Shown here piece by piece: positions 874-60,423 of a stretch of 64,000 nt of DNA. The stretch comes from an uncultured Solirubrobacteraceae bacterium (GTDB lineage: Bacteria > Actinomycetota > Thermoleophilia > Solirubrobacterales > Solirubrobacteraceae): positions 4,481 through 68,480 of the forward strand of contig CAWAHX010000006.1 of NCBI GenBank assembly GCA_963781935.1, given 5' to 3'. Within the stretch, counting starts at the first letter, position 1. Every line of letters begins with the position of its first letter. The translations under genes were made by a program, and so were the position numbers. The notes below the pieces were generated by a model. The model worked only from the letters and a program-made list of their open reading frames with translations. It was not told the DNA's origin and ran no database searches.

Positions 874-910
874 GGTCGGAGCCTCTCACAGGCGGGATAC
901 ACTCGCGAGA

Positions 911-2268
911 ATGTCGGGGTCCGAGCTCCTCAGCGTCGTCACCCCGGTCTCGCGTCCCGCGCTTCTGCCCCTCATCGCACCCTCGGTCCCGGTCGGCGCC
1001 GAATGGATCCTCGTCACCGACGGGCCCCACGAGATCCCGCCCGGTCTGCTGGGCCGACGCGGATGTTCGGCTGATCGAGGGTCCCGCCACGCGGCGCTGG
1101 GGTGACGTCCAGCGTCAGATCGGCCTCGAGGCCGCCGGCCGTCCGTTCGTCACCTTCCTCGACGACGACAACGTGATGCTGCCCATGCTCGCGGAGCTCG
1201 TGATCCCGGCTCTCGACGCCTCGGGTCAGCGCCGGCGCCCTCTTCGGTCTGCTGCTCCGTCACCCGGGCGGGTTCTACATCTGGCCGCCACCTTCCAGGA
1301 TCGAGCGCTCGCAGGTGGACACCGCCATGTTCCTCGGGCGGACCGACGCCGCCCGCCGTGTCGGCTGGCCCGATCTGAGCGGCGGCGAATGGCCGGGGCT
1401 CGACGACCAGCGCTGCGGCGACTTCGTCTTCATCCGGGCATTCGACGAGCAGGAAGGCCTGCTGCGGATGCCGGCCATCTACGGCTTTCACGACGGCCTG
1501 GCGGTGATCCGGGAGTTCGCGCCCGACATCCATGCCGGGCTGGAGTGCGGCGAGCCCGTCGGCGATCGCCTGCTCGCGATGCTGCACGGCCACATGTCCC
1601 AGGCGGACGCGCCACCATGGTGGAAGGGCCGCGAAGCCGAGCCGGAGCACGTCGGGACGCCGGGTTCCGTGAGTCAGGAGCTCCTGGAGCTCGCCGGATC
1701 GTCACGTGAGGGGAGCTCGGTGCCCGCGCAGCGAGCACACTTCCAGGCGTGCGTCCGTCGTCTTGCCACGGACCGGCCCGGCCAGCCCGTCCACGTGCTG
1801 GAGATCGGGTTCAACGCAGGTCTCGGGTCGGCGGCCTTCCTCGAGGCGACGCCGCAGGCGCATGTCGTGAGCTTCGACCTCGCCGAGGAGCCGTACGTCG
1901 CCGCCTGCGCGGCGCACCTTCGTGCGCGGTATCCGGACCGGTTGCACCTCGTGATGGGCGACTCCCGTGTGACCTTGCCGCAGTTCGCCGCGGAGGCGGG
2001 CGCGGGCGTCGACCTCGTTCTGATCGACGGCGGGCACGACGAGGCGACCTGCCGGGCGGACGTGCTCAACGCCCGCGCGGTCGCGGCGCCCGGCGCACTG
2101 GTGATCGTCGACGATCTGATGCCCCACAAGGCGTACGGCGCCGGCGTCACGAGAGCATGGGAGGCGCTGCTCGCACGATCAGGTGCTCGCCAGCCCCGAG
2201 ATCTGGTGCTCGAGGCCGGGAGCGACGACGGCGGAGGCGGACACGGGGGAGCCCCCGGAGGGGTGTGA
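911..2268 (+). pseudogene. Glycosyltransferase-like N-domain fused to a class I SAM O-methyltransferase; two frame breaks (~1040 and ~1230)
   Basis: Three frames join colinearly: MSGSELLSVVTPVSRPALLPLIAPSVPVGAEWILVTDGP, then ADADVRLIEGPATRRWGDVQRQIGLEAAGRPFVTFLDDDNVMLP, then ALFGLLLRHPGGFYIWPP...VHVLEIGFNAGLGSAAFL...VDLVLIDGGHDEATC...GALVIVDDL. The last segment carries the SAM-binding fold motifs. A TACACT box lies 7 nt before ATG 911. Confidence 0.55.
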
Positions 2269-2337
2269 GCGGCGCTGGGGCCTGGCGCGGTATGGGGCGC
2301 TCTGAGCCCGCCCGAGCCGCCGCTAGCCTCGAGGCAC

Positions 2338-3625
2338 ATGAACGTCGGAGCACAGATCGCCGCGCCGCGGGGCAGCGTCTACGAGTTCGCGACGGAAGTC
2401 GCGCGCCTGTCGGGCGCCACGAGGATCCTCGACGTCAAGGAGGGCCTCGCACACCGCCGGCTCGAGCTTCCTCGCGCTGTCGTCGCGGACTCCGTGGTCG
2501 TCGCCGACGGCGTTCTGGGCCGACGCGTCGATGCGAACGGGTTGCTGGACGGTCATCGCGCAGCTCGCAGACGACGCCCCGGCCGTGGTGGTGTCCGTGC
2601 CCGGCAATGGTCGCGCGCTCGACGACCTCGTCGCAGTGCTCGAGCGGGCGGGGATGCCACCGACGTTCGCCGGATACACCGTGGACGATTCGCGTGGCCG
2701 GCGGGAGCCGACCACGCTGGCGGTGATCGAGCCACCGGCCGACCGGGTGGCGACAACGCCCCCGAGCGACTTTCGCGTGACCGCGGTGCTGCCGGTGTTC
2801 AACGAAGCCGACATCGTCGAGGCGGCGATCACCAAGCTCGTCGACGGGGGCGTCGACGTCGTCCTCGTCGACAACTGGTCGACCGACGACACGGTCGCCC
2901 GCGCGCAGGCCCTGGGCCTGGGCGAGCGCCTGACGCTGGAACGGTTCCCGCCCAGCGGGCCGACCGGGACCTTCGACTGGCAGGACCTGCTGCACAACAG
3001 CGAGGCGATCGCCGAGCGCCGCGGTGGCTGGATCACGCACCAGGACGTCGACGAGGTCCGCCAGCGGTCCTTGGCCGGGGCTCGGGCTGCGCGACGCCCT
3101 CTGGCAGGTGCACCGCCGCGGGATACAACGCGGTGAAGTTCACGTCTCTGGTGTTCCAGCCCGTGGACGACGGGTTTCAGCCCGGGGACGACTTCGAGCG
3201 GTACTTCCGCCACTTCGAGTTCGGCGATCGCCCGATGCACTTCGTGCAGGTGCGGGCCTGGAACGCCGACGCCGGTCGCGCGGACCTCGCTGGCGGGCGG
3301 GCACGACGCGCGTTTCCCGGGCCGGCGCGTCTTCCCGTACAAGTTCCTGCTGAAGCACTACCCGATTCGCTCTCAGGCACACGGCGAACGGAAGGTGTTC
3401 CGCGAGCGTCAGGCACGCTGGAACGCGGAGGAGCGGGCGCGTGGCTGGCACGTGCACTACGACGGGTTCGAGCCGGAGACGACCTCGTTTCTTCGCGACC
3501 CGGCCGGCCTGCTGGTCATGGACGAAGCGTTCGAGCGCCGCTACCTGACGGAGCGTCTCGCCGGCGTGGGCATTCCGCGTGAGGCGCCGGTCACGCCGCG
3601 GACGACGCAGGAGAGCGCGTCGTAG
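2338..3625 (+). pseudogene. Family-2 glycosyltransferase with N-terminal extension; about four frame breaks (~2525, ~3062, ~3115, ~3300)
   Basis: Segments in different frames are colinear: FRVTAVLPVFNEADIVEAAITKLVDGGVDVVLVDNWSTDDT...GGWITHQDVDEV, then PWPGLGLRDALWQVHRRG, then YNAVKFTSLVFQPVDDGFQPGDDFERYFRHFEF, then RRVFPYKFLLKHYPIRSQAHGERKVFRERQARWN...stop at 3625. A TAGCCT box lies 8 nt before ATG 2338. Confidence 0.55.
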
Positions 3626-4772: not shown

Positions 4773-6336
4773 GGCCCGTCGTCACGGACACCGAGTCTCC
4801 GGGGTGGATACGCACCACGAAGGACGGCGCTCCGGAGCCCGACGGTGTGAACGTGATGCAACGCCCGGCTTGCGCGAGGGCACCGCCCGTCGGCTCCTCC
4901 ACCGTCAGGACGGCGCCAGCGGCTGCCGCGTTCTGGGGCCCGTTTGCCGGGGCGAGCGGCACGATGCCCTCTGCACGGGCGACAGCCGCGTCCGCCGCTT
5001 GCCGACGACTCTCCGGCGCCTTGCCGGCGAGCCAACCGAGGCCGCCTGAGGCGCTCCCGAAGCGGCGCGTGGCCGCCAGGTAGGACCCGATCCGAAGGAT
5101 CTCCGTCGCGCGCGGGTCGACGAGGAGATCCGCGCGCGACGCTGCGCCCCCGACCTCGATTCCGGCCAGCTCGCCTCGCAGCGGCTCCCAGATCCCGCGC
5201 AGGAATCGCGTTGAGTCCCGCAGATGGAAGAGGTTCCCGAACGTCAGACCGACTACCACGACCACTGCCGTGGCGGTCATCCACGGTGTCCACCGCTGAG
5301 GCGCGGGCAACATCTCGGCCGCAACCAGCATCAGCACAATCGCTCCGAACGAGATGTAGCGGGGCGCACCAGGCTCGTGGAACTGTGCCCTGGTCACGGC
5401 CGTCAGCGTCCAGAAGCCGAGCCCGGCGACAAGCAGTGCCGCCAGCCTCGGCGACGGAAGTGGCGCACGGGCGTCGCCACGACGCAGGATGGCGACTGCG
5501 CCGATCCCTCCGGCGAGGATCACAGGTCCGTAACCGGCGGCCAACCCGGTGATCCCGGCCGCGGCCGCCGACGCCGCGTCGACGACATACTGAACCGCGT
5601 ACTGAACGTTGCTCCCGATCGCGTCGCTCCCGTCGCTGTATCCAGCCCTCCAGAGCAGGTACAGCCCGAGCGGAACGGCGAAGATCCACCAACGCCTCCG
5701 GCGACCCGGTTCGAGGAGCACCTCAACCGCCACTCCGAGCAGGATCGGAATGCCCATTCCCGCCGTCGCCAGCGACGCAGTAATGAGAATGCAGGCCCAG
5801 ATGTCGCGGCGTTTGGATGGCTGGTCGAGCAGCACGAACGCTCCCAGCCCGAACGCGAGCGCGCCGACCTGGCTGAGCTGGAAGGGGAGCAGAATGTTCT
5901 CTGCGCTCGCTGACATGAACAGCAGCAGGAACGCAGGGATCAGCGCCGCCCAGCCACCGAGCCGGCGACGGACGAGCACGTAGACGAGCACCACGCAGGC
6001 AAGGTGGGTGATGAGCACGGAGAGCCGATACGGCCAGTAGTGCCCGAGGCCGACGGTCGACCAGAGCGTCTTGTAAACCAGCACGGGGATCAACGAGAGG
6101 TGACCGTTGTGTGGTCGCAGGTAGGTATCCAACCCGCCCCCTTGGCGCACCGACAGGAACGTCCACTCGTCCCCGTAGAAACCGAGTGGACGGCCGAGCC
6201 AGAGGATCCCGATACCGCCGACCACGACGGCCGCCACGAGGATCGCAGTCTGGATACTGATCCGCCCTGCGATCAGGCGCGTCGGGGCCGCCGCCCGGCC
6301 GGTTGTCTCTGGGGAAGCGGCCTCAGCGGACATCAC
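4597..6336 (-). CDS. Large polytopic membrane protein, GT-C-like (putative polyprenol-phosphate-sugar dependent glycosyltransferase) with C-terminal extracytoplasmic domain
   Basis: Intact 579-aa ORF with many hydrophobic spans. An acidic motif, FYGDEWTF, follows TM1 directly, as in the first loop of GT-C enzymes. There is a soluble beta-rich C-terminus. The likely start is ATG 6333, with TAGCCT 7 nt upstream. Confidence 0.55.
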   Translation of the reverse strand: MMSAEAASPETTGRAAAPTRLIAGRISIQTAILVAAVVVGGIGILWLGRPLGFYGDEWTFLSVRQGGGLDTYLRPHNGHLSLIPVLVYKTLWSTVGLGHYWPYRLSVLITHLACVVLVYVLVRRRLGGWAALIPAFLLLFMSASAENILLPFQLSQVGALAFGLGAFVLLDQPSKRRDIWACILITASLATAGMGIPILLGVAVEVLLEPGRRRRWWIFAVPLGLYLLWRAGYSDGSDAIGSNVQYAVQYVVDAASAAAAGITGLAAGYGPVILAGGIGAVAILRRGDARAPLPSPRLAALLVAGLGFWTLTAVTRAQFHEPGAPRYISFGAIVLMLVAAEMLPAPQRWTPWMTATAVVVVVGLTFGNLFHLRDSTRFLRGIWEPLRGELAGIEVGGAASRADLLVDPRATEILRIGSYLAATRRFGSASGGLGWLAGKAPESRRQAADAAVARAEGIVPLAPANGPQNAAAAGAVLTVEEPTGGALAQAGRCITFTPSGSGAPSFVVRIHPGDSVSVTTGRGSPVGVQLRRFAERFTVTPTPIAAPGSAIVRTVRDKAPGVDWHLYVAAQQRVRTCPA

Positions 6337-6404
6337 GCTCAGGCTACCTCAGCAACTCAATGCCGTCCTCGCGGGCGCGCAGGACCGCCGATAGGGTCCG
6401 GGAG

Positions 6405-7187
6405 ATGCCCCCCGCCGCGCTCTACGCCGAACCGATCACCGTCGACGACATATCGGAGTGCTTCTTCTACCACGTCATGGACGTACCCGGCGGCGGTGTC
6501 GTGGGCTACAACGAGGTCAAGGCGTCCTTCGATCTTCGGGGCCATGAGGCCGAGTATCTCGGCCACGTGGCGTTTGACGGGCGGCGAGTCCTGGAGATCG
6601 GCCCAGCCAGCGGGTTTCTGACTTTTGCGATGGAGTCGATGGGCGCCGAGGTGGTCGCGGTAGAGCTCGGCGAAGACAACGAGTGGGATGTCGTGCCACA
6701 CGCCGAGCTCGACCTCGCCGCCATCCAGAACGGACGCCAGGACATGTTGCGGCGGCTGCGCAACGGCTTCTGGTGGGCGCACGCCCGCACGGACAGCAGA
6801 GCGAAGGTGCACTACGGCGACGTCTACGCGCTCCCCGGCGAGCTCGGCCGCTTCGACGTGGCGGTCCTTGCGGCAGTCCTCCTTCATACCCGCGAGCCGC
6901 TGCGCATCATCGAGGGCTGCGCGGGGCTGAGCGACCGAATCGTGATCACGGAGATGTCATACCCGGAGCTGGGCAGCACGGCGGTGACCCGCTTTCACCC
7001 GCAGGCCGGGTCAACCAAGTGGGACACGTGGTGGGACTTCACACCCGAGTACCTCGTCCGGTTCCTCGAAGTCCTGGGCTTCCGCCGTTTCGCCGTCACG
7101 CACCACACGCAGCGTCTCGTCGTCCCTGGCGGGGAACACGAGATCCGGATGTTCACCGTGGTGGCTGATCACGGATCGGTCAGCTGA
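6405..7187 (+). CDS. Class I SAM-dependent methyltransferase
   Basis: Motif I is RVLEIGPASGFLTFAMESMGAEVVAVE, with a later DVAVLAAVLLH. The start is taken at ATG 6405 because it is preceded by TAGGGT at 7 nt. The ORF-track start 6303 would overlap the divergent gene. Confidence 0.6.
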   Translation: MPPAALYAEPITVDDISECFFYHVMDVPGGGVVGYNEVKASFDLRGHEAEYLGHVAFDGRRVLEIGPASGFLTFAMESMGAEVVAVELGEDNEWDVVPHAELDLAAIQNGRQDMLRRLRNGFWWAHARTDSRAKVHYGDVYALPGELGRFDVAVLAAVLLHTREPLRIIEGCAGLSDRIVITEMSYPELGSTAVTRFHPQAGSTKWDTWWDFTPEYLVRFLEVLGFRRFAVTHHTQRLVVPGGEHEIRMFTVVADHGSVS

Positions 7188-11233: not shown

Positions 11234-11239
11234 TACGTT
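11234..11239 (+). promoter_or_regulatory. Candidate -10 box TACGTT, 9 nt upstream of the wzt ATG (leaderless-type)
   Basis: TANNNT hexamer in a 61-bp divergent intergenic region. There is no purine-rich SD at proper spacing. Confidence 0.4.
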
Positions 11240-11248
11240 GGAGTACTC

Positions 11249-39942: not shown

Positions 39943-39948
39943 ACTCTA
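39943..39948 (-). promoter_or_regulatory. Candidate -10 box TAGAGT, 8 nt before GTG 39934
   Basis: The 37-bp divergent intergenic region holds two back-to-back TANNNT boxes. There is no room for a 5'UTR or SD. Confidence 0.45.
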
Positions 39949-39956: not shown

Positions 39957-39962
39957 TAGCCT
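39957..39962 (+). promoter_or_regulatory. Candidate -10 box TAGCCT, 9 nt before the gmd ATG 39972
   Basis: The same CTAGCCT-N8/9-ATG arrangement recurs at 2324, 44789 and 50979. Confidence 0.45.
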
Positions 39963-39971
39963 GTCGCCGCG

Positions 39972-43499: not shown

Positions 43500-43508
43500 C
43501 CCCGCAGC

Positions 43509-44788: not shown

Positions 44789-44794
44789 TAGCCT
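44789..44794 (+). promoter_or_regulatory. Candidate -10 box TAGCCT, 9 nt before ATG 44804
   Basis: GGCTAGCCT-N9-ATG, with no SD. The opposite strand carries TAGAGT at 44761-44766. Confidence 0.4.
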
Positions 44795-44803
44795 CTGCCG
44801 CGC

Positions 44804-47522: not shown

Positions 47523-47540
47523 GCGTAGCGTGCCGCTGAC

Positions 47541-49081: not shown

Positions 49082-50059
49082 TCAGGTCCCCTCTGTCGCG
49101 GCCAGCTCGGCCAGGTCGAGCTGCACCATCTCGCCGATCATCGCCTCGAAGGAGATCGCGGCGTCCCACCCGAGCACGCGCCGCGCCAGCGACGGGTCGC
49201 CGACGAGCGGCACCGGCTCGCGCGGCCGCACGAACTCCGGATCGACGCGCACGTGCCGCTCGACGCCGCCCGTCACGCCGGCGGCGGCGAATGCCGTCTC
49301 GACGAGGTCGCGGACCGTGTGGCCGATGCCGCTGGCCAGCACGTAGTCGCCGGGCGCGTCGGCCTGCAGCGCGAGGTGCGCGCCGGCGACGATGTCGCGC
49401 GCGTCGGACCAGTCGCGCACCGCGTCGAGATCGCCGAGGACGAGCTCGTCCTGGAGCCCGAGGGCGATCGCGGCCGCGCCGCGCGTGACCTTGCGGGGCA
49501 GGAAGTGCGGCGGACGGCGAGGCGACTCGTGGTTGAACGTGATGCCCGAGCAGGCGAACAGGCCGTGGCGCTCGCGCAGCGTCCGCACGAGGCCGTGGGC
49601 GGCGAGCTTCGCGACGCCGTACGGCGTGCGCGGGCGCATCGGCGATCCCTCGTTCTGCGGACTCGTGACGGCGTCCCCGAACAGCTCGCTCGACGTCGAC
49701 ACCCAGACGCGCGGACGCTCGTCCAGCGCCAGCGCGGCGGCGAGCACGGTCGCTGTGCCGCCCGCGATCGCGGCGACCGTCTCGGTCGGGTCATCCCATG
49801 AGTCCGGCACGAACGTCGGCGCGGCCAGGTGATAGAGCTCGTCCGGGCGGGCGTCGGCGATGCTGCCGCGCAGCGAGTCGGGCTCGCGCAGGTCCACGGC
49901 GACGAACGCCACCTGGTCCCGGATCGCCGCGATGTTCGGCGCCTGATCGGTCCCGGCACGGTCGAGCCCCGTCACCTCATAGCCCGCGGCAAGCAGGCGC
50001 TCCGCGAGATATGACCCGTCCTGCCCCGCGATTCCGGTGATGAGCGCGCGTCGTGGCAT
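49082..50059 (-). CDS. GDP-mannose 4,6-dehydratase family, second divergent paralogue (intein-free)
   Basis: [73 protein letters not shown]. Intact 325-aa ORF. TAGGCT lies 9 nt before ATG 50059. Confidence 0.8.
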   Translation of the reverse strand: MPRRALITGIAGQDGSYLAERLLAAGYEVTGLDRAGTDQAPNIAAIRDQVAFVAVDLREPDSLRGSIADARPDELYHLAAPTFVPDSWDDPTETVAAIAGGTATVLAAALALDERPRVWVSTSSELFGDAVTSPQNEGSPMRPRTPYGVAKLAAHGLVRTLRERHGLFACSGITFNHESPRRPPHFLPRKVTRGAAAIALGLQDELVLGDLDAVRDWSDARDIVAGAHLALQADAPGDYVLASGIGHTVRDLVETAFAAAGVTGGVERHVRVDPEFVRPREPVPLVGDPSLARRVLGWDAAISFEAMIGEMVQLDLAELAATEGT

Positions 50060-50068
50060 CGGCGCCGG

Positions 50069-50074
50069 AGCCTA
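50069..50074 (-). promoter_or_regulatory. Candidate -10 box TAGGCT, 9 nt before ATG 50059
   Basis: TANNNT in the divergent intergenic region 50060..50149, with no SD. Confidence 0.4.
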
Positions 50075-50149: not shown

Positions 50150-50981
50150 GTGACCGCCCACCCTCAGACTCCGGGCCCCGCCCCGCGCGCCGATCGCGCC
50201 AAGCCGACGCTCCCCGCCAGCGTCGAGCTGCTGGGCGTGCCGCTGGCGCTGATCGATTACGACGGCGTGCTCGACTGGATGGACGCCTCGATCGACGCCG
50301 GCGCCCGCGAGTACGTGTGCGTCGCGGCCACGCACACCGTCATGGCGTGCGACGAGGACCCGCAGCTGCGGGAAGCCGTGCGCGGGGCGAGCATGACGGT
50401 CCCCGACGGGCAGCCGCTCGTGTGGGCGCTCCGGGCGCTCGGCCGCGGCGACGGGCTCGACGGCCGGGTGTACGGCCCCGAGCTGATGGCGCGAGCGTGT
50501 GAGCGCGCCGCCCGGACGGGAACGAAGATGTTCCTCTACGGCGGGCGCAACGAGGGGACGCTCGTGCAGCTCACGCTGAACCTGCGCCGCCGCTATCCGG
50601 GCCTCCAGATCGTCGGCGGCCACGTTCCGCCGTTCCGGCCGCTGACCGATGACGGAGGAGGTCGCGGTCATCCGTGAGATCGACCGCTCCGGCGCCGACA
50701 TCGTCTGGGTCGGGATCGGCGTTCCCAAGCAGGAGAAGTGGATGGCGCGGATGCGACCGCGCCTGCAGGCGCCGGTGCTCGTGGGCGTGGGCGCCGCGTT
50801 CGACTTCCACGCCGGCCTGGTGCCCCAGGCACCCAGGTGGATCCAGTCCGCCGGCCTGGAATGGGCCTACCGGCTGGCCCGTGAGCCGCGCCGGCTCTGG
50901 CGGCGCTACCTGCGCTACAACCCGCGGTTCGTCATCGGTTTCATGCGTGAATACGTGCGCTACCGGCGGGGCACGCACTAG
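50150..50981 (+). CDS. WecB/TagA/CpsF-family (GT26) glycosyltransferase; one frame break near 50650
   Basis: VELLGVPLALIDYDGVLDWM...TVPDGQPLVWAL...MFLYGGRNEG...GGHVPPFRPLT is continued in another frame by EEVAVIREIDRSGADIVWVGIGVPKQEKWM...GVGAAFDFHAG. Confidence 0.7.
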
Positions 50982-50993
50982 CCTGAGACCCGT

Positions 50994-52262
50994 ATGGACT
51001 ACGACGTAGCGATCATCGGCTGCGGGCGGGTCGGGCTGCCGCTCGCGCTCTCGTTCGCCGACCACGGCCTGCGCACGCTCGGCATCGACAACGACGCCGC
51101 CCGCCTCGACGCCGTCCGTGAGGGCCGGATGCCGTTCGACGAGCCCGGCGCACCCGAGGTGCTGGCGCGTGTCGGGCAGGCCGGGACGATCGCCTGGTCG
51201 GACCGCGTGGCCGACGCCGCCCGTGCGCGCAGCATCGTGATCACGCTCGGCACCCCGTCGCACTCGCACATCGAGATCGACCTGAGCCACATCCGCTCGG
51301 TGCTCGACGACCTGATGGGGGTGCTGGGGGAGGGTCAACTGCTGGTGCTGCGGTCCACCATCGCGCCCGGGACGACCGCATTCGTCGCCGGGTACATCGA
51401 GAAGCACCGCGGCCTGGTCGCCGGGCGCGACATCAGCGTCGCCCACGTCCCCGAGCGGATCGCCGCCGGAAAGTTCTTCGCCGAGATCGACACGCTGCCG
51501 TGCATCGTCGGCGGCATCGGGGAGCGTTCCGGTGAGGCCGCGGCGGCGCTGTTCGAGACACTCGGCGCGCCGATCGTGCAGACGACGCCGATCGACGCCG
51601 AGCTCGCGAAGATCTGGACGAACATCCTGCGCTACGCGACCTTCGCGCTCCCGAATCGCCTGATGGTCGAGTGCGAGCAGTACGGGGCGAACGTCTACGA
51701 CGTGATCGACCTGATCAACCGCGACTACCCGCGCGGCGGGATCGCACTGCCCGGCATGACCGCGGGAACCTGCCTGCGCAAGGACTTCGCCTTCAGCGAG
51801 GAGCGCTCGAACGCCCCCGGCATGCTGCTCGCGGTCTCGCGCGTCAACGAGTCGGTCCCGCTGTTCCTCGTCGACGGCCTCAAGCGCCGACTCGGGTCGC
51901 TGAACGGCCGCAAGGTCGCCGTGCTGGGCCTCGCCTTCAAGGCGGACACCGACGACGAGCGCGACTCGCTGTCGCACAAGCTGATCCGGCTGCTCGAGCG
52001 TGAGCTGGCCGACGTCGCCGTCCACGACCCGCTCGTCGCGACGCCGACACAGTCGTTCGAGGAGGCGATCCTCGACGCGGACGCAGTCGTCGTCGCAACG
52101 AACCACTCATGCTTCCGCGGCCCCGGCACCCTGCGAGCGATCGCCGACAGCGCGCACACCGGCGCCGTCATCGCCGACCCGTGGAACACGTTCGACCAGG
52201 GTGAGATCTTCGGCGAGGCCGGCGCCCTGGTCGCATCGTCGGCCACGGGCCGCCCGGCCTAG
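50994..52262 (+). CDS. Nucleotide-sugar 6-dehydrogenase (UDP-glucose/GDP-mannose dehydrogenase family)
   Basis: VAIIGCGRVGLPLALSFA (NAD fold), catalytic Cys in GGIALPGMTAGTCLRKD, VAVLGLAFKADTDDERDS. Intact 422-aa ORF. Confidence 0.85.
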   Translation: MDYDVAIIGCGRVGLPLALSFADHGLRTLGIDNDAARLDAVREGRMPFDEPGAPEVLARVGQAGTIAWSDRVADAARARSIVITLGTPSHSHIEIDLSHIRSVLDDLMGVLGEGQLLVLRSTIAPGTTAFVAGYIEKHRGLVAGRDISVAHVPERIAAGKFFAEIDTLPCIVGGIGERSGEAAAALFETLGAPIVQTTPIDAELAKIWTNILRYATFALPNRLMVECEQYGANVYDVIDLINRDYPRGGIALPGMTAGTCLRKDFAFSEERSNAPGMLLAVSRVNESVPLFLVDGLKRRLGSLNGRKVAVLGLAFKADTDDERDSLSHKLIRLLERELADVAVHDPLVATPTQSFEEAILDADAVVVATNHSCFRGPGTLRAIADSAHTGAVIADPWNTFDQGEIFGEAGALVASSATGRPA

Positions 52263-52295
52263 CAGGTCTTGCCCGGCGCTACCCTCCGCAGCGCC

Positions 52296-53273
52296 ATGTC
52301 ACGCGTCCTCGTCACCGGCGGTGCCGGCACCATCGGTCAGGCCGTGGTGCGCCGTCTTCTTCGCGATCCGGACTTCGAGGTCCGCGTCTCCGATCAGCGC
52401 GAGGCACCAGGATGGATGCGCGAGGGCTGCGAGGTCCACACCGGCGACCTGCGCGACCGCGCCGAGGCCGGGAAGGCCACGGCGGGCTGCTCCCACGTGA
52501 TCCACCTGGCGGCGATCGTCGGTGGGATCGCGAACTTCCACAAGCTTCCCTACACGCTGACGGACGTGAACTCGTCGCTCTACAACGGCGTGGTCGGTGC
52601 CGCGATCGAGCACCACGTCGAGCGCTTCGTCTACGTGTCGTCCTCGATGGTGTTCGAGAACGCCACGCAGTTCCCGACGCCGGAGAGCCACGTGCGGGAA
52701 TGCCCGGTGCCCCGATCGGCCTACGGCTTCAGCAAGCTCGCCGGCGAGTTCTGGGTGCGCGCCGCGCACGACGAGCACGGCCTGCCGTACACGATCTGCC
52801 GCCCGTTCAACGCGTACGGCCCGGGCGAGATGCCCGAGGACGAGCCGGGCATCGCGCACGCCGTCCCCGACCTGATCAAGAAGTGCCTCGCGCTGCCCGA
52901 GGGCGCGCCGCTGCCGATCTTCGGTGACGGGACCCACACCCGCACGCTGACCCACGTCGACGACATCGCCGACGGCATCGTCACCGCGACCGGCGCGCAG
53001 GCGGCACTGAACGAGGACTTCAACGTCTCCGCCTCCGACGAGCTGACCGTCGCAGAGATCGCCCGCGTCATCTGGGAAGCCTGCGGCCGCGACCCCCAGG
53101 CATTCGCGCTCGAGCACCTCCCGAGCTTCGAGGTCGACGTCGTGCGGCGCTGGCCGGACGTGTCAAAGGCCCGAGAGGTGCTCGGGTGGGAGGCGCAGAT
53201 CGATGTGCGGGATGGGGTGGCGGCGACGGTGGAGTGGCTGCGCGGGGTTGCGCCCCCCGGCGGGGCGGGCTGA
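52296..53273 (+). CDS. NAD-dependent sugar epimerase/dehydratase (SDR)
   Basis: MSRVLVTGGAGTIGQAVV, VSSSMVFE, YGFSKLAGEF. ATG 52296 is preceded by TACCCT at 10 nt. Confidence 0.8.
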   Translation: MSRVLVTGGAGTIGQAVVRRLLRDPDFEVRVSDQREAPGWMREGCEVHTGDLRDRAEAGKATAGCSHVIHLAAIVGGIANFHKLPYTLTDVNSSLYNGVVGAAIEHHVERFVYVSSSMVFENATQFPTPESHVRECPVPRSAYGFSKLAGEFWVRAAHDEHGLPYTICRPFNAYGPGEMPEDEPGIAHAVPDLIKKCLALPEGAPLPIFGDGTHTRTLTHVDDIADGIVTATGAQAALNEDFNVSASDELTVAEIARVIWEACGRDPQAFALEHLPSFEVDVVRRWPDVSKAREVLGWEAQIDVRDGVAATVEWLRGVAPPGGAG

Positions 53274-53796: not shown

Positions 53797-54750
53797 TCAG
53801 GAGCCGGCGGCGGCCTTGAGGTGCTCCAGCACCGCCCGCATCCCATCCTCCAGCCGCGTGTCCGCCGTGAACGCGAGCTCGGCCCTCGCGCGCGAGACGT
53901 CGAGTGAGCTGCGCTGGAGCTCGCCGAGGCGCTCGGGCTCGAAGTCTGCGGAGAAGGTCGCTTCGTCGACGCCGGCGGCCTCGCGCAGCGCGTCGATGAC
54001 GTCGAGCACGGAGGACTCGACCCCGGTGCCGATGTTGTAGGCACCGTGCGCCTGTGGGTGGGCGGCGGCGGCGAGGTTCGCCTGCACGACGTCGCCGACG
54101 TAGGTGTAGTCGCGCAGCGCGCGGCCGTCCCCGTAGACGATCGGGCGCTCCGACTTCAGCAGGCGACCGGCGAAGATCGCGATCACGCCCGCCTCGCCCG
54201 CCGGGTCCTGCCGCGGCCCGTAGACGTTCCCGTAGCGCAGCGTGACGGTCGACAGGCCGTACAGGCGCGAGTACCAGGCGCAGTAGAGCTCGGCGCACTG
54301 CTTGCTCTGGCCGTAGGCCGCCATCGGGAACGGCGTCTCGGTCTCCGGGGTCGGCATCACGTCGGTCTCGCCGTAGATCGCGCCGCCGGTCGACGTGTTC
54401 ACGAGCCGGCGCACGTCGTGCGCGCGCGCGGCCTCGAGCACGTTGATCGTTCCGACGACGTTGATGCCGGCATCCCACGCGGGATCCTCGATCGACTTGC
54501 GCACGTCGATCTGGGCGGCCATGTGAAAGACGGCGTCGGGGCGCTGTGCGGCGAACACCTCGCCGACCGTCTGCGCGTCGCGGATGTCGACCTCGTGCAG
54601 TGAGGCCCCGCGCGTCAGCGCCTGGGAGAGGTTCTCCCGCCGGCCGCTCGACAGGTCGTCGATGACCGCGACCTCGTCCCCGCGGTCGAGGAGGGCATCC
54701 ACGAGGTTCGAGCCGATGAAGCCGGCACCGCCGGTGACGAGAGCGCGCAT
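53797..54750 (-). CDS. UDP-hexose 4-epimerase-like SDR
   Basis: MRALVTGGAGFIGSNLVDALL, NTSTGGAIYG, YGQSKQCAELY. Intact 317-aa ORF. TAGCAT lies 9 nt before ATG 54750. Confidence 0.75.
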   Translation of the reverse strand: MRALVTGGAGFIGSNLVDALLDRGDEVAVIDDLSSGRRENLSQALTRGASLHEVDIRDAQTVGEVFAAQRPDAVFHMAAQIDVRKSIEDPAWDAGINVVGTINVLEAARAHDVRRLVNTSTGGAIYGETDVMPTPETETPFPMAAYGQSKQCAELYCAWYSRLYGLSTVTLRYGNVYGPRQDPAGEAGVIAIFAGRLLKSERPIVYGDGRALRDYTYVGDVVQANLAAAAHPQAHGAYNIGTGVESSVLDVIDALREAAGVDEATFSADFEPERLGELQRSSLDVSRARAELAFTADTRLEDGMRAVLEHLKAAAGS

Positions 54751-54769
54751 AGGGTCGTGATGCTAAGGG

Positions 54770-55891
54770 TCAGCCGTCGTAGACGGCTCGCAGCGCCCGG
54801 GCGACGGCCGGCGGCGACGCCAGCGCCCTCGATCCGGGCGGCGTTGGCCGCACCGGCGGCCGCGTCGCCGTAGCGGCGCGCCGCGAGCTCCGCCAGGCCC
54901 TGGACGTCGCCGGGCGCGGCGAGGTCCTCGTCGCCCAGCAGGTCGGTCAGCGCTCCGACGCGCATGCCCACGACCGGCAGGCCGGCGGCCATCGCCTCGG
55001 CTGCCGACAGGCCGAACGTCTCCGCGAACCGCGACGGCACGATCGCCAGCGCGGCGCCGGCGCGCAGCGCGGCCAGCTCGGCCTCCGGAACGCGGCCGGC
55101 GAACCGCACGTCGGCACCCAGACGGGTCGCGAGCGCCCGCAGCGCGGTCTCGTCGGGGCCGTGACCGGTGACCACGAGTGGCAGTCCTGCGCAGCGCGCA
55201 GGCCTCGATGGCGAGGTCGACGCCCTTGTCGGGCGCCAGGCGCGCGGAGACGATGGCGTATGCGCCGGCCGCGGGCTGTGCGCGCACGGCGGCCGCGGGC
55301 ACGGGGTTGGCGATGACCGTGACCTCACGGCCCTCGAGCGGCGCCCCCATCGCCCGCAGACGGTCGACGGTGAACGAGCTCGGCGTCACCAGCGCGTCCG
55401 CCTGCTCGACCAGCCGGCGCGACCACAGCGGCAGCGCGGCGCCGTAGACGGCCGCCTCCGCGAGCGACCCGCGGCAGCGCAGCCGCACACCCGGCCGCGT
55501 GTCGCGCCCGTGGCAGCGCGTGCAGTCCTGCCCCGGCGGGATCCAGGCACGTGCCGACCGCGCACACGAGGCGGTACTGGTGGAGGTGCAGGACCGTGCG
55601 CGCCCCGGCGTCGCGCGCGGCGGCGAGCGAGCGCCACCCGAGCGCCGGGTTCACGTTGTGTGCGTGGACGACGCGCGCGCCGGTCCGCCGCACCGCCGCG
55701 GTGATCTCGCCCGGGTCCAGGCCGCCGCGCAGCAGACCCGCCGCGGCGCTCCCGCGCGACAGCGCCGCGCTGTCGCGCTCGAGCAGCTCGACGTCCTCCC
55801 CGAGCTCGCCCGGGAGCAGCCTGAGCAGCTCGTCGACGACGCGTTCCTCGCCCCCGAGCGTGCGGTAGCGGTTGTGCAGGAGCAGGATCAC
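54770..55891 (-). pseudogene. GT4-family glycosyltransferase; about 3 frame breaks (~55520, ~55190, ~54830)
   Basis: ILLLHNRYRTLGGEERVVDEL...VVHAHNVNPALG, then DCTRCHGRDT-like Cys-rich piece and ADALVTPSSFTVDRL...AIVSARLAPDKGVDLAIEA, then LPLVVTGHGPDE...IVPSRFAETFGLSAAEAMAAGLPVVG, then ALASPPAVARALRAVYDG followed by stop 54770. Confidence 0.6.
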
Positions 55892-55902
55892 GGGGCCCGG
55901 CC

Positions 55903-55912
55903 AAGGTACCGT
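55903..55912. promoter_or_regulatory. Overlapping divergent candidate -10 boxes (TACCTT on minus, TACCGT on plus) sharing a GGTACC core
   Basis: The 30-bp divergent intergenic region lies between GTG 55891 (minus) and ATG 55922 (plus). The gaps to the starts are 11 and 9 nt. Confidence 0.35.
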
Positions 55913-55921
55913 GAACCGCCG

Positions 55922-57578
55922 ATGCCGCTGGCCACCGCCGTCATCGTCCCGACGCGGGACCGTCCGCAGTACCTCGATGTCGCGCTCGCGTCGATCATGC
56001 CCCAGGCGGCGGAGCTGGGCGCCGAGGTGCTCGTCATCGACGACGGCCCGTCGGCGCCGACGCGCGAGACGGCCGAGCGCCACGGCGCCCGCTACGTCGC
56101 GCACGAGGCCCCGCGGGGACTCAACGCGGCGCGCAACACGGCGATCGCGCAGACCACCGCCGACCTGCTCGTGTTCGTCGACGACGACGTCGCCGCGGCG
56201 CCCGGGCTGGCTGGCGGCGCTGGTGGACGCCGCCGGGCGCCTGCCCGAGGAGGCCGGCGTCCTGACGGGCCCGATCGTGCCGCGCATCGAGGACCATCGG
56301 TTCCGCGCCTGCGGGCGGGAGGGCGGCCCGGTGACCGGGCAGGACTTCGGGCCCGCCGAGACCGACTGCCCGCACGCCTGGGGCGCGAACATGACGATCC
56401 GCCGCTCCGCGATCGAGCGCGCCGGGATGTTCGATGCCGCGCGCGAGCTGTACGGCGACGAGCAGGAGTGGCAGGCGCGCTGGAAGGCGCTGGGCGGCCG
56501 CATCCGATTCATCCCGGCGGCCGCGGTGGACCATCGCCGGGCCGGCGACGATGCACGGCTGCGCTCGCTCTGCCGTGCCGCCCGAATGCGAGGCCGGGCG
56601 AGCCGGCGGTTCGACGAGTTCAAGGGGACGGCTCCGAGCCTGCGCGCCGAGCTGCGCACGCTCGCCGGCTGCGCGCTGCATGGGCCGCGACGCCGCTGCG
56701 CGATGGGTCCGGTGATGACGTGGCACAGCATCGGGCGCCTCGAAGCGCTCTTCGCGCCGCCTGTGAGCCCGGCGCTGCGCGAGGGCGACGACCCGTTCAC
56801 CTCGGGCGCCGGCGGCACCGTCGCGGGGGTTCGGGGCCTGGTGCTGCGAGGTCGTGATGGGGCGCTGGATCTGCGCGAGACGCTGTCGGGGCGCCGGCGC
56901 CGGCTCGACCGCGCGGCGCGCGAGACGCCGCCCCGGCGCCGTGTCCTCGTGCTCGCCGTCGAGCGTCTCGACGTCCCCTCGCTGCTCGCCGGCGCGCGCG
57001 CCGAGCTGGCTCGTTCACGCCACGACGTGCGCATCCTGACGCGCGAGCCGGGCGACCTGGGCAAGTTCGAGAACCTCAACGCGCTGCTCGCGGGTGAGGA
57101 CCTGGCCGGTGAGGACTGGGTCCTCGTGCTGGACGACGACGTGACGCTTCCGCGCGGCTTCCTGGACCGCTTCCTGCACGTCGCCGAGCACGCGGACCTC
57201 GCGCTCGCGCAGCCCGCCCACCGCCTGCACTCACACGCCGCGTGGGACGTCACCTACCGCGTGCCCGGTGCGATCTGGCATGAGACGACGTTCGTCGAGA
57301 TCGGCCCCGTCACCGCATTCCGGCGCGACACGTTCGCGGCGCTGCTGCCGTTCCCGGACCTGCGCATGGGCTGGGGACTCGACAGCCACTGGGCCGCGCT
57401 GGCGCGCGAGCACGGCTGGCGCGTCGGCGTCGTCGACGCGACGCCCGTCGGCCACACCCTGCGCCCCCCGGCGGCGACCTATCCGCGCGAGGCGGCGCTG
57501 GCCGAGGCACGAGCGTTTCTGCAGGACCGCCCATACGTGCGGCGCGACGAGGTCCGCACGCTGGCGGTGCATCGGTGA
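55922..57578 (+). CDS. Protein with two GT-A (GT2-like) domains; one frame break near 56203
   Basis: ATAVIVPTRDRPQYLDVAL...VLVIDDGPS...LLVFVDDDV, then in the frame of ORF 55872..57578 WLAALVDAAG...AWGANMTIRRS. The second domain reads RVLVLAVERLD...WVLVLDDDVTLPRGFL...EIGPVTAFRR. Confidence 0.65.
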
Positions 57579-58747
57579 AGGTCGCCGTCGTCGCCGAGTT
57601 CTACCCGCGTGCCGGCGACCCCGTCCTCGGGATCTGGGCGCACGAGCAGGCACGGGCGGCGCGGGCGGCCGGCGCGGACGTGCGCGTCATCGTCCTGCAC
57701 CGCATCGTCCCGCCCGCCGCGACTGCGCGGCGCGACCTGGCGGGCGCCGCCGTGCGCCTCGCGCGCCAGCCGCGCCGCGCCGTCCTGGACGGCGTCCCCG
57801 TCGAGTACGTCCGCTACGTCTCCCCGCCGAAGGGTCGTTCGTACGCCTCCTGGGGCTCATGGGCCGCGCCGGCGCTCACGCTTGCGCTGCGCCGGCTGCG
57901 GCGGCACTTCGCGTTCGAGGTCGTCCACGCGCACAACGCGGTTCCCGCCGCCGACGCGGTCCTGCGCGCACGCGCCGGCGCACCGCTGGTGATCTCCGAA
58001 CACGGTGCCGACGTCTTCCACACCGCGATTCGGCACCCCACGGGCCGGCGCGCGATCGAACGGGCATTCGGCGAGGCGCGCCTCGTGCTGGCCAACAGCG
58101 GAGGGATCGAGCGCGCCGCGCGGGAGCTGGGCGCCCGCAACACGCGCATCGTGCATCTCGGCACCGACCTGCCGGCGGCGCCGCTGCACCATCCGCTGCA
58201 CGCCACGCTGGTCACCGTCGCCCACCTGGTCCCGCGCAAGCGTCATGCCGACGTCATCCGCGCGCTCTGGGTGCTGCGCGAGCGCCACCCGGATCTGCGC
58301 TACGTCGTGATCGGCGACGGTCCGCAGCGCGAGCCGCTGGAGCACCTCGCGGCGACGCTCGGGCTGCAGGACCGCGTGACCTTCACCGGCCAGCTGCCGC
58401 ATGCCGAGGCGCTCGAGCAGGCCCGCGCCTGCTCGCTGTTCGTCATGCCGAGCGTGGACGAGGCGTTCGGCGTCGCGTACGTCGAGGCGATGGCCGGATG
58501 CCTGCCGGCGATCGGCGCTCTCGGCGAGCCGGGCCCGGCCGAGATCACGCGCCTGGGGGACGGTCTGCGCCTCGTGCCGCCGGGCGACGTCGGCATGCTC
58601 GCCGAGGCGATCGACGTGCTCACCGCCGACCCGCGCTTCCTCGACGAGCTCGGACGGCGCGCACGGGCGACCGTCGAGCGCTCGTTCACCTGGGAGGCGT
58701 GCGGGCGGGCGACGGTCGCCGCCTACGAGGAGGCGCTGCGGCGGTGA
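57575..58747 (+). CDS. GT4-family glycosyltransferase
   Basis: MKVAVVAEFYPRAGDPVLGIW...VVHAHNAVPAA...LVTVAHLVPRKRH...VMPSVDEAFGVAYVEAMAGCLPAIG. The GTG overlaps the upstream stop (GTGA). Confidence 0.8.
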   Translation: MKVAVVAEFYPRAGDPVLGIWAHEQARAARAAGADVRVIVLHRIVPPAATARRDLAGAAVRLARQPRRAVLDGVPVEYVRYVSPPKGRSYASWGSWAAPALTLALRRLRRHFAFEVVHAHNAVPAADAVLRARAGAPLVISEHGADVFHTAIRHPTGRRAIERAFGEARLVLANSGGIERAARELGARNTRIVHLGTDLPAAPLHHPLHATLVTVAHLVPRKRHADVIRALWVLRERHPDLRYVVIGDGPQREPLEHLAATLGLQDRVTFTGQLPHAEALEQARACSLFVMPSVDEAFGVAYVEAMAGCLPAIGALGEPGPAEITRLGDGLRLVPPGDVGMLAEAIDVLTADPRFLDELGRRARATVERSFTWEACGRATVAAYEEALRR

Positions 58748-59828
58748 GCGACCGGCCCGTCCTGTTCGTCACGAACCACGTCCCGCCGGACCGCGTCGGC
58801 GCATTCCAGGCGCTGCACGAGGCCGAGGGCATCGAGCTCGCGCTGTTCGGCGGACGCCTGCATCACGCGACCGCGGGCGTGCGGGACCCCGGCGTGCCCC
58901 ACTCGCCACATCACGCCAGCGCGAAGCCCATTCGCTGGCGGCGAGCGGCCGGCACCGGGCGGTGATCGCCTCGAGCGCGGGGCGCGTCGCGCTGCCGGCG
59001 ACGTACGCGGGCGCGCGCCGCGCACACGTGCCGTTCGTCTACTGGACCGGCATCTGGGCGCAGATCCGCACACCCGCGCACATCGCCGCGATCCCGATGG
59101 TGCGCACGATCGAGCGTCGCGCCGACGCCGTCGTCACCTACGGCACGCACGTCAGCGACTACGTGACGAGCCATGGCGCCCGCAACGTGCACGTCGCGCC
59201 GCAGGCGGTCGACAACGACTTCTGGAGTGCACCGGCCGACGCGCTCGCCGCGCGTGAGGCGTGTCGTACCGACGGCTTCCTGGCGCTCTACGCGGGGCGC
59301 CCGGAGCCCGCCGGCAAGGGGCTCGCGGTGCTGCTCGAGGCGTGGCGGCACGAGCGACCTCGCCGCCGCCGGCGGCCGTCTCGCCCTGGCGGGCGTGCCG
59401 CCCGGTGCGTGCACCGCGCAGCCGGGCGTCATCGCCCTCGGGAGCCTCGACCCCCCACAACTGCGCAACTTGTACGCCGCCGCCGACGTTCTCGTGGTGC
59501 CGTCGATACCGACGGCCGACTTCCGCGAGCCGTGGGGACTCGTCGTCAACGAGGCCATGAACCAGCGCACACCGATCATCGCCACCGACGCCGTCGGCGC
59601 CGCCGCCGGCGGCCTGGTGCGCGACCGCGTCACCGGACTGGTCGTGCCCGCCGGCGACGTTCCGGCGCTGGCGACGGCCCTGTGCGAGCTGCACGCGGAC
59701 TCCGGCGCTGGCCTCGCGCCTGGGCGATGCCGGCGCTCACGCGGTCGCGCCGCGCGACCTATGCGGCCTGGGCGCAGGGCTTTTCGCGAGCGCTGGCAAC
59801 CGTCTCGGCAAGCCGGGGCTCCTGCTAG
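58744..59828 (+). pseudogene. GT4-family glycosyltransferase; at least 3 frame breaks (~58905, ~59355, ~59710)
   Basis: VSDRPVLFVTNHVPPDRVGAFQAL, then AVIASSAGRVALPATYAGARRAHVPFVYWTG...ADAVVTYGTHVSDYV...FLALYAGRPEPAGKGLAVLLEAW, then VLVVPSIPTADFREPWGLVVNEAMNQRTPIIATD, then YAAWAQGFSRALATV followed by stop 59828. GTG 58744 overlaps the upstream stop. Confidence 0.55.
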
Positions 59829-59829
59829 C

Positions 59830-60423
59830 GTGCCGCGAGTGCCGACAGCCCTGCTGCGCCGCGCACTCGTGGCCACGGCGATGCTGCTGTTCCTGCTCGT
59901 CCCCGCCGCTGCGCACGCGAACTACAAAGATCTCCTCAAGGACGCCTGCCGTGACCAGAAGGTCAACGGCACGTACAGCCAGAAGGACTATCGCGACGCG
60001 CTGGACAACCTGCCGGCGGACGCGGACCAGTACACGGACTGCCGCGCGGTCCTGCGTGCGGCGCAGCTGGCGGCCGCCGGCGCGCAGGGATCGTCCGGTG
60101 GTGGCGGTGGTGGCGGCGGCGGGTCCAGCCAGCCGAGCTCCGTGCCCGCCGCCGGCGGCGATCCGCTCGCGACCGCGACGCCGGCCGAGAAGGCCGCGGT
60201 CGCGACGGCCACCAAGCAGGCCGCGCAGACCAGCCACGGCCCCGTCGAGGTCGGCGGCGTGCGGATCGAGCCGAGCGCGCTCGGAGCCGGGCGACCCGTG
60301 GCGGCATCGATCTCCGATCTCCCCGCCCCGCTGCTCGCCGCGCTCGGCCTGCTCGCGCTCGCCGTGCTCGCCGCCATCGCCCTCGTCGTGATACCGCGTG
60401 TCCGCGCCCGTCGCGATACCTGA
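59830..60423 (+). CDS. Small exported protein: signal peptide, Cys pair, Gly9 run, Ala/Ser/Pro/Thr-rich linker, C-terminal TM anchor
   Basis: ALLRRALVATAMLLFLLVPAAAHA (signal-like), ...ACRDQKV...DCRAVL..., SSGGGGGGGGGSSQPSSVPAAGGDPLATATPAEKAAVATATKQAAQTS, ...LLAALGLLALAVLAAIALVVIPRVRARR. The start may be GTG 59839, with TAGCGT 7 nt upstream. Confidence 0.5.
   Translation: MPRVPTALLRRALVATAMLLFLLVPAAAHANYKDLLKDACRDQKVNGTYSQKDYRDALDNLPADADQYTDCRAVLRAAQLAAAGAQGSSGGGGGGGGGSSQPSSVPAAGGDPLATATPAEKAAVATATKQAAQTSHGPVEVGGVRIEPSALGAGRPVAASISDLPAPLLAALGLLALAVLAAIALVVIPRVRARRDT

Follow-up and report, generated by a model that had tools for sequence, protein, structure and literature searches.

What places a TANNNT hexamer directly in front of so many start codons? 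The question is raised by a 64-kb stretch of DNA (71.0% G+C; hereafter the window) from an uncultured Solirubrobacteraceae bacterium (assembly GCA_963781935.1, contig CAWAHX010000006.1, positions 4,481 to 68,480), in which an earlier note had listed 24 such hexamers and read them as -10 boxes of leaderless or near-leaderless genes. Our analysis indicates that the hexamers are very probably the -10 elements of housekeeping (sigma-A-type) promoters that lie directly before the start codons and would give rise to leaderless or near-leaderless mRNAs. This supports the reading of the earlier note, and it rests on the motif itself, the lack of Shine-Dalgarno (SD) sites, the restriction of starts to ATG and GTG, a floor of 6 nucleotides (nt) in the spacing, conservation in orthologues, and avoidance of the hexamer on both strands of genes.

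Hexamers at gene heads

The sample consisted of the window and 80 related loci (L001-L080, 1.42 Mb), which were obtained by scanning species-representative genomes with the protein that starts at 50994 in the window (best match, 94% amino acid (aa) identity). Nearly all of these loci belong to metagenome-assembled genomes (MAGs) of Solirubrobacteraceae or other Solirubrobacterales, plus Paraconexibacter (Actinomycetota), and they are centred on one type of gene neighbourhood rather than covering any whole genome. Genes were called blindly by a self-trained codon-usage caller that takes the start with the maximal coding score and ignores the upstream sequence, which gave 46 genes in the window and 1129 in the window and 80 loci together. 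For orthologue weighting, the proteins were grouped into 301 clusters. The gap is the number of nucleotides between hexamer and start codon. As actinomycete controls, 300 kb each of Rhodococcus jostii pRHL1, Nonomuraea gerenzanensis and Streptomyces rimosus were run through the same pipeline, pRHL1 yielding only 10 motif genes; a Deinococcus plasmid served as a further, noisy control (61.5% G+C, many transposases).

All 24 hexamers, gaps and start codons listed previously were exact. The TA dinucleotide is rare in the window (0.0094), and TANNNT occurs 52 times in total (24 on the plus strand, 28 on the minus strand), or 0.0004 per position; the chance rate of 0.003 per position that had been assumed was too high, about 7-fold above this figure. 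The pattern thus lies even further beyond chance than had been claimed, with 46% of all TANNNT in the window falling at the 24 listed sites. Listing all 52 hexamers brought up one more gene head that had been overlooked (GTG 25184), so that 25 of the 52 lie at gene heads. With blindly called starts, TANNNT was found at a gap of 6-11 nt in 12 of the 46 window genes (binomial p = 1.6e-21), where 0.5 were expected from control offsets and 0.87 from shuffles (maximum 6 in 2000). Among all 1129 genes, 321 carry the hexamer in this range, with counts of 67, 47, 53, 61, 75 and 18 at gaps of 6, 7, 8, 9, 10 and 11 nt, compared with a mean of 3.9 per position at control offsets 14-59. The peak at gaps 6-10 puts the first T at -12 to -16. 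At the level of orthologues, 58 of the 301 clusters have the motif in at least half of their members; weighted by cluster, about 18% of genes carry it. The consensus is TA(G/A)NCT: the third base is G or A in 66-83% of cases, and position 5 is C in 63-85%.

Chance, base composition or the habit of taking the first ATG or GTG after an in-frame stop as the start could in principle create such a pattern. A gap of 9 nt sets TAG or TAA in frame with the start codon, as seen at 8 of the 11 gap-9 sites, and the motif had helped to pick some of the starts. However, T fills the sixth position of hexamers that begin with TA about 80% of the time at gaps 6-10 as opposed to 15-25% elsewhere, the enrichment at the out-of-frame gaps (7, 8 and 10) equals that at the in-frame gaps, and G or A occupies the third position at similar rates in every gap class. 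These three observations show the concern about in-frame TAG at the 9-nt gap to be unfounded, and the artefact was rejected on these grounds. The probability obtained with the blind caller and the retention of the box in orthologues likewise speak against an artefact, to which we attach virtually no probability.

The 25 gene heads are given below as the span from hexamer to start codon, strand, hexamer, gap, start codon and encoded product.

898..913, plus: TACACT, gap 7, ATG 911; open reading frame (ORF) of 64 aa, coding score 6.0, without a Pfam match.
2324..2340, plus: TAGCCT, gap 8, ATG 2338; score of 20.3 over the first 60 codons, after which the frame shifts; no in-frame start further upstream.
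6392..6407, plus: TAGGGT, gap 7, ATG 6405; methyltransferase-like; same start by the blind caller.
11234..11251, plus: TACGTT, gap 9, ATG 11249; Wzt-type ABC ATPase (Pfam ABC_tran and Wzt_C); blind caller concurs.
23163..23180, plus: TAGACT, gap 9, GTG 23178; LPG_synthase_TM protein, domain from residue 15; blind caller took TTG 23217.
25820..25836, plus: TACGCT, gap 8, ATG 25834; 87-aa ORF, coding score 35, without a Pfam match; blind caller took TTG 25825.
35036..35053, plus: TAACCT, gap 9, GTG 35051; GT2 glycosyltransferase, profile position 1 at residue 8; stop 4 codons upstream; blind caller concurs.
39957..39974, plus: TAGCCT, gap 9, ATG 39972; GDP-mannose dehydratase with an intein, domain position 1 at residue 6.
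44789..44806, plus: TAGCCT, gap 9, ATG 44804; DegT aminotransferase, frameshifted later, domain from residue 17; stop 4 codons upstream.
47526..47543, plus: TAGCGT, gap 9, ATG 47541; GNAT protein, 18 nt past the stop of the upstream gene; blind caller concurs.
50979..50996, plus: TAGCCT, gap 9, ATG 50994; UDP-glucose/GDP-mannose dehydrogenase, domain position 3 at residue 5.
52280..52298, plus: TACCCT, gap 10, ATG 52296; NAD epimerase, profile position 1 at residue 4.
55907..55924, plus: TACCGT, gap 9, ATG 55922; GT2, frameshifted later, domain position 2 at residue 7.
59826..59841, plus: TAGCGT, gap 7, GTG 59839; signal-peptide protein, first 60 codons score 33.7.
6331..6346, minus: TAGCCT, gap 7, ATG 6333; membrane protein; blind caller took the adjacent GTG 6336.
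20933..20950, minus: TATCCT, gap 9, GTG 20935; transketolase N-terminal subunit, Transketolase_N position 7 at residue 11; blind caller took GTG 20980.
23119..23137, minus: TAACCT, gap 10, ATG 23121; NAD epimerase, profile position 2 at residue 5; blind caller took GTG 23127, 2 codons upstream.
25182..25197, minus: TAGGCT (25197-25192), gap 7, GTG 25184, the new site; NAD epimerase, profile position 1 at residue 3; only start of its ORF.
37600..37615, minus: TAGACT, gap 7, GTG 37602; GT2, domain from residue 19.
39116..39130, minus: TACGCT, gap 6, GTG 39118; Wzx-like flippase; only start of its ORF; blind caller concurs.
39932..39948, minus: TAGAGT, gap 8, GTG 39934; FkbM methyltransferase; only start; blind caller concurs.
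43497..43511, minus: TAGGCT, gap 6, ATG 43499; FkbM methyltransferase; stop 3 codons upstream; blind caller concurs.
50057..50074, minus: TAGGCT, gap 9, ATG 50059; GDP-mannose dehydratase, domain position 1 at residue 6.
54748..54765, minus: TAGCAT, gap 9, ATG 54750; GalE-like epimerase, profile position 1 at residue 3.
55889..55908, minus: TACCTT, gap 11, GTG 55891; GT4 glycosyltransferase, frameshifted later, first 60 codons score 36.5; N-terminus typical of GT4.

The blind caller differs by 1-15 codons at six claimed starts (6333, 20935, 23121, 23178, 25834 and 37602), and it skipped six others (911, 2338, 44804, 55922, 55891 and 59839) because the frame changes downstream in these seemingly frameshifted genes. 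Pfam backs most of the claimed starts independently of the motif. Rossmann, GT2 or dehydrogenase domains begin at profile positions 1-3 within residues 3-8 of the proteins starting at 39972, 50059, 52296, 54750, 23121, 35051, 50994 and 55922, and an in-frame stop often lies just 3-4 codons upstream of a claimed start. Domain boundaries also favour the starts chosen in the earlier note at 20935 and at 37602, where the alternative start would truncate the GT2 domain. The sole doubtful start is 911, which makes 898..913 the weakest of the sites; its ORF may head a frameshifted GT2-like gene.

Promoter element or translation signal

The lack of SD sequences noted before was borne out. In motif genes the SD core (GGAG or GAGG) has a frequency close to 0 across spacers of 5-14 nt, and in the remaining genes it reaches a peak of 0.03-0.05 at spacers of 5-10 nt. 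Within the spacer itself, a 4-mer of the SD core occurs at only 3 of the 24 listed sites (11249, GGAG at 5 nt; 2338, GAGG at 3 nt; 6405, GGGAG at 0 nt), and at 11249 alone does the core fall within the 5-10 nt expected of canonical SD-led initiation. Five starts had been assigned to ordinary SD sites; those at 25765 (minus strand), 46019, 32735 and 32529 are real, 16278 is weak, and a further SD-led start was confirmed at 508 (minus strand).

Start codons and spacing both fit leaderless transcription. All 25 window heads begin with ATG or GTG, and TTG is used by 4 of the 321 motif genes as against 66 of the 800 other genes (8%). TTG should be nearly absent if the start codon opens with the purine at which transcription starts. 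The gap has a sharp floor at 6 nt, a gap of 5 being found in only 2 cases in the Solirubrobacterales sample. This minimum, together with a pyrimidine-purine step at the start codon, Y(-1)R(+1), provides indirect signs of a transcription start site (TSS) at the start codon. That a sigma factor binds the hexamer, and where the TSS lies relative to it, we infer from what is established about promoters in actinobacteria.

Orthologues keep T1, A2 and T6 of the hexamer, and its inner bases and flanks vary. The box of the dehydrogenase at 50994 is kept in 53 of 79 orthologues (modal gap 10), and that of the dehydratase at 50059 in 64 of the 89 members of its cluster (modal gap 6). At 39972 the box is kept in L001, L002, L003 and L006 with gaps of 10, 10, 9 and 7 nt, at 59839 in L002 and L003 with a gap of 7 nt, and at 37602 in L003. 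Orthologue gaps are 8, 8, 9, 9 and 6 nt for 44804; 9, 10, 7, 8, 10 and 9 nt for 52296; 9, 9, 9, 7 and 12 nt for 55922; and 9, 11, 11 and 10 nt for 55891. For 54750, the orthologues carry TACCCT, TAGCAT, TACGAT, TAGCAT and TACCAT at 9, 9, 6, 8 and 10 nt.

The reverse of this conservation is seen inside genes. Taken over every coding region in the window and the 80 loci, TANNNT is reduced on the sense strand to 0.32 of the synonymous-shuffle expectation (411 vs 1277-1293) and on the antisense strand to 0.31 (340 vs 1102). The corresponding ratios are 0.6 for TANNNA, 0.9-1.0 for TANNNG and TANNNC, and 0.85 for TA overall. The 3-fold depletion of TANNNT is a strong sign of selection against spurious -10 boxes, and its equal extent on both strands indicates a signal that acts at the level of DNA, which argues against a translation signal in the mRNA.

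Such a translation signal would be a non-SD ribosome-binding or translation-enhancing element, situated in longer 5' untranslated regions (UTRs) transcribed from promoters further upstream. The fixed short distance to the start codon resembles SD spacing, and 50 of the 321 boxes overlap an upstream stop codon and would thus be contained in polycistronic RNA. However, the avoidance on the antisense strand is not predicted by an mRNA element; boxes are present in divergent spacers of 30-37 nt, where an upstream promoter would fall inside the neighbouring gene; the minimum gap is the canonical distance from -10 to TSS; and the motif is identical to the mapped actinobacterial -10 consensus (PMC3898074). 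We therefore consider an mRNA element very unlikely.

Gene context agrees with a promoter. A box stands before 32% of genes with a divergent neighbour and, where a same-strand gene has 6-150 nt of space in front, in 37-53% of cases. The share falls to 6-7% where genes overlap (7%) or the upstream region is longer than 150 nt, and to 6% where they are 0-5 nt apart. At five of the 25 window heads, the upstream gene ends in the TAG of the hexamer: 50979-50981 (WecG gene), 59826-59828 (ORF 58401..59828), 37613-37615 (gene 37613..39118), 43509-43511 (gene 43509..44729) and 54763-54765 (GT4 ORF). This use of the upstream stop as TA(G/A), counted in 5 of 25 window boxes and in 50 of 321 overall, would be compatible with a signal for termination-reinitiation, that is, translational coupling around the upstream stop. 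Nevertheless, 140 of the 321 boxes precede divergent genes, where no ORF lies upstream on that strand and the spacing is the same, and the conserved T6 has no role in termination. Coupling is thus extremely improbable as an explanation.

Four pairs of divergent starts in the window have a box each: 55891/55922 (30 nt apart), 39934/39972 (37 nt), 23121/23178 (56 nt) and 6333/6405 (71 nt). Spacing of 30-71 nt leaves no room for two conventional promoters with 5'UTRs and SD sites. In the 30-nt intergenic region, TACCTT (minus) and TACCGT (plus) share 2 bp on a GGTACC palindrome (55903-55912). In the 37-nt region, TAGAGT (minus) and TAGCCT (plus) lie 8 bp apart (39943-39962). Such back-to-back boxes are too close for two polymerases to occupy at once, which suggests mutually exclusive divergent transcription.

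If the hexamers are -10 elements, RNA polymerase would open the DNA at the hexamer, and transcription would begin at the A or G of the ATG or GTG or a few nucleotides upstream. The 5'UTR of the mRNA would then be missing or no longer than about 4 nt, with no SD site, and the ribosome with initiator tRNA would bind AUG or GUG directly at or beside the 5' end. This layout would give many tightly packed genes their own promoters within very short intergenic spaces, including the divergent pairs 30-71 nt apart and the boxes that reuse a preceding TAG stop.

Several points weigh against this assignment. Neither a -35 element nor a TGN extended -10 motif was seen in the logos, although this is typical of actinobacteria. 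No purine-enriched position was seen in the spacer, as a TSS inside it would call for. The gaps of 9-10 nt at 13 of the 24 listed sites exceed both the 6-8 nt of Mycobacterium tuberculosis (PMC6028130) and those of the controls, and strictly 0-nt leaders would for this reason require unusual start-site selection. Some starts were selected with the help of the motif, and several of the genes are frameshifted in the assembly. A literature search for leaderless transcription or TSSs in Solirubrobacter, Conexibacter, Rubrobacter and Thermoleophilia returned nothing relevant. Scans of the window with Rfam and for tRNAs gave no match, and RNA genes could therefore not be used to calibrate the distance from -10 to TSS.

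Three further sites were recorded beside the 25. TAGAGT at 44757-44762 (minus strand) stands 27 nt upstream of ATG 44729 (GT4), outside the 6-11-nt range, and is a possible promoter with a short leader. TAGGTT at 35037-35042 (minus strand) is 4 nt before GTG 35032 (N-terminal fragment of a GT4), too near for a canonical TSS. In L003, near 9975-10000 and upstream of the orthologue of 50994, the sequence is GGCGAGCCT where the window has TAGCCT. At many N-termini L003 and the window agree to 99-100%; here, either the box has been lost or one of the two assemblies is in error.

Distance from hexamer to start codon

The earlier note had drawn attention to a modal gap of 9 nt, longer than usual for a -10 element. 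In the window this is correct (11 of 24 sites), whereas across the order the mode is 6 nt after de-duplication, and the 9-nt mode is limited to the window, its closest relatives and certain gene families. Cluster-weighted counts at 6, 7, 8, 9 and 10 nt are 18.3, 10.4, 9.7, 7.9 and 5.6, and the numbers of clusters with these modal gaps are 21, 10, 10, 7 and 8. An order-wide bimodality suggested by raw peaks at 6 and 10 nt vanished on orthologue weighting and was discarded.

A long-gap class is nonetheless present. In the actinomycete controls, gaps of 5, 6, 7, 8, 9, 10 and 11 nt were found 3, 21, 15, 11, 0, 1 and 3 times, and the Deinococcus plasmid has its peak at 5-6 nt. Gaps of 9-10 nt account for 15 of 58 clusters versus 1 of 54 control cases (Fisher p = 2e-4; 0.002 with Deinococcus included). 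The 13 of 24 in the window differ from the controls with p = 1e-7 and from the other Solirubrobacterales small clusters with p = 0.002. The 9-10-nt class thus comprises over half of the window boxes and about a quarter of the orthologue clusters; Streptomyces, Nonomuraea and Rhodococcus practically lack it. Gap length is family-specific and conserved: UDP-sugar dehydrogenase, GT4, GT2 and GalE-like families have 9-11 nt across species, and the Gmd family (the cluster with 50059) and a regulator-like one have 6 nt. The base before the hexamer is alike in the short-gap and long-gap boxes of the window. Within this sample, which centres on one type of gene neighbourhood, the long spacing is a real, lineage-enriched deviation.

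Where transcription starts in the long-gap genes can be read in two ways. It may begin at the A or G of the start codon even at gaps of 9-10 nt, with a discriminator 2-3 nt longer than usual, and we give this close to an even chance. Pre-scrunched open complexes, as in Escherichia coli rrnB P1, would provide a mechanism. TTG is excluded in every gap class, and at gap 9 the base before the start codon is a pyrimidine in 77% of cases, corresponding to the Y(-1)R(+1) signature of a TSS. Spacer positions 7-8, where a start at the usual distance would fall, show no enrichment of purines (0.30 and 0.46). In Streptomyces clavuligerus, 92.8% of leaderless mRNAs have a 0-nt UTR (PMC6614810). On the other hand, pyrimidines are not in excess just before the start codon at gap 10, and the near-absence of 9-10 nt in the controls (1 of 54) means that a start at the codon itself would require a lineage-specific property of the polymerase.

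Alternatively, transcription may start 6-8 nt after the hexamer and yield near-leaderless mRNAs with leaders of 1-4 nt that are translated without an SD site, which we regard as a serious possibility of somewhat below even probability. In Deinococcus deserti, 13% of mRNAs have a TSS near but not at the start codon and are efficiently translated (PMC4007540), and the cut-off of the gaps at about 10-11 nt would fit a ceiling on the leader length that is tolerated. In raw counts, ATG is also used more often as the gap widens (49% at gap 6, 92% at gap 10). However, this trend is not significant once orthologues are collapsed (p = 0.24), spacer positions 6-9 have no purine enrichment, and short leaders are rare in mapped actinomycetes (7% of S. 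clavuligerus leaderless mRNAs, PMC6614810). The idea that a longer gap makes ATG obligatory was dropped, the raw trend being due to large orthologue families.

The spacing bears on how far from the -10 element RNA polymerase can reach for its start, or on how many 5' nucleotides are tolerated in SD-independent initiation. Should the TSS lie exactly at AUG, the sigma-A holoenzyme would routinely use a discriminator 2-3 nt beyond any characterised housekeeping class; should leaders of 2-4 nt be made, the ribosomes of this lineage would routinely initiate on near-leaderless mRNAs. Either way, family-conserved spacing could tune expression. With some reserve, and as a rather doubtful proposal at present, we suggest that Solirubrobacterales possess a distinct, conserved class of leaderless-type promoters with the start codon 9-10 nt from the -10 box.

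Gene content of the window and comparison with known systems

By Pfam content, the window is a cluster for the biosynthesis of cell-envelope polysaccharide or glycan. It encodes a Wzt/Wzm ABC exporter, many GT2 and GT4 transferases, two GDP-mannose dehydratases, a UDP-sugar dehydrogenase, epimerases, FkbM and other methyltransferases, a Wzx-like flippase and a Wzy_C protein. An intein of 349 aa lies at 40509-41555 (plus strand) within the ORF 39972..42725 and bears a LAGLIDADG homing-endonuclease domain (LAGLIDADG_3, E = 2.8e-11). It interrupts the conserved NHE|SPRRG motif of GDP-mannose 4,6-dehydratase (Gmd), with the N-junction ...FNHE/CVRS..., and orthologues of about 666 aa, a length that fits Gmd plus the intein, are found in 15 other Solirubrobacterales loci.

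About 10 genes of the window change frame mid-gene, with Pfam domains split over adjacent ORFs, as in WecG (50150/50649), an FAD hydroxylase (45965/47046) and the Gmd C-extein (frame +1 at 41584-41985). The frame switches are as follows.

Mid-gene frame switches: 2338-3660, 21223-22174, 33687-35032, 41555-41990, 44804-45960.
Mid-gene frame switches, continued: 45965-47522, 50150-50981, 54615-55891, 55922-57578, 58400-60423.

They represent either indel errors of a long-read MAG assembly or pseudogenes. The closest relatives of the window are Nanopore MAGs.

Solirubrobacterales are abundant soil bacteria with almost no genetics. The present results extend leaderless architecture to Thermoleophilia, a deep-branching actinobacterial class. 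From the strong selection against stray TANNNT it follows that the hexamer by itself is a potent promoter in this class. For annotation, the box identifies or confirms the true start of about 25 window genes, and starts in Solirubrobacterales need a leaderless-promoter model (TAnnCT, spacer 6-10 nt) rather than an SD model.

This type of gene head has been mapped or predicted before in other Actinobacteria and in Deinococcus-Thermus. Zheng et al. identified TANNNT, with its first T about 12 bp before starts, as the -10 box of leaderless genes, which by their estimate exceed 20% of the total in Actinobacteria and Deinococcus-Thermus (PMC3160421). In M. tuberculosis, 73% of TSSs are preceded by TANNNT at 7-12 bp, and a -35 consensus is lacking (PMC3898074). 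GeneMarkS-2 models this leaderless, TA-led layout as its group C, to which it assigns 90% of Actinobacteria, and places the Pribnow box of M. tuberculosis 6-8 nt from starts (PMC6028130); MetaGeneMark-2 gives a mean bacterial spacer of 6 nt. By TSS mapping, 33% of mRNAs are leaderless in Corynebacterium glutamicum (PMC3890552), and exactly 0-nt 5'UTRs characterise 92.8% of the leaderless mRNAs of S. clavuligerus (PMC6614810). In D. deserti, the TSS is at or very near AUG or GUG in 60% of genes (47% exact, 13% very close) (PMC4007540).

The window resembles the TANNNT-led genes of M. tuberculosis, C. glutamicum and Streptomyces, members of the same phylum, in having TANNNT before ATG or GTG, no conserved -35 and no SD. 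The share is also similar, at 20-40% of genes or operons in the known actinobacterial systems and here. The spacing in those systems is about 6 nt (6-8 in M. tuberculosis, mostly 5-8 in our controls), whereas here there is a tail at 9-10 nt, and the box is TAnnCT here instead of the TAGCGT or TACAGT of the controls. With D. deserti, the window shares a TAnnnT box and would share a very high proportion of transcription starts at or near AUG or GUG, and very short leaders are efficiently translated in that organism. D. deserti belongs to another phylum, however, and the near-leaderless class that was mapped there is one of two readings here.

If the long-gap genes start exactly at AUG, they would also resemble E. 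coli rrnB P1, where the TSS is farther from the -10 element. That promoter drives a leadered rRNA and has a -35 and an UP element, and nothing in our data shows regulation by the initiating nucleoside triphosphate or by guanosine tetraphosphate (ppGpp); the resemblance is a lead only. Taken together, the architecture is already well described and ordinary for Actinomycetota; what is new is the lineage, the TAnnCT consensus and the 9-10-nt spacing.

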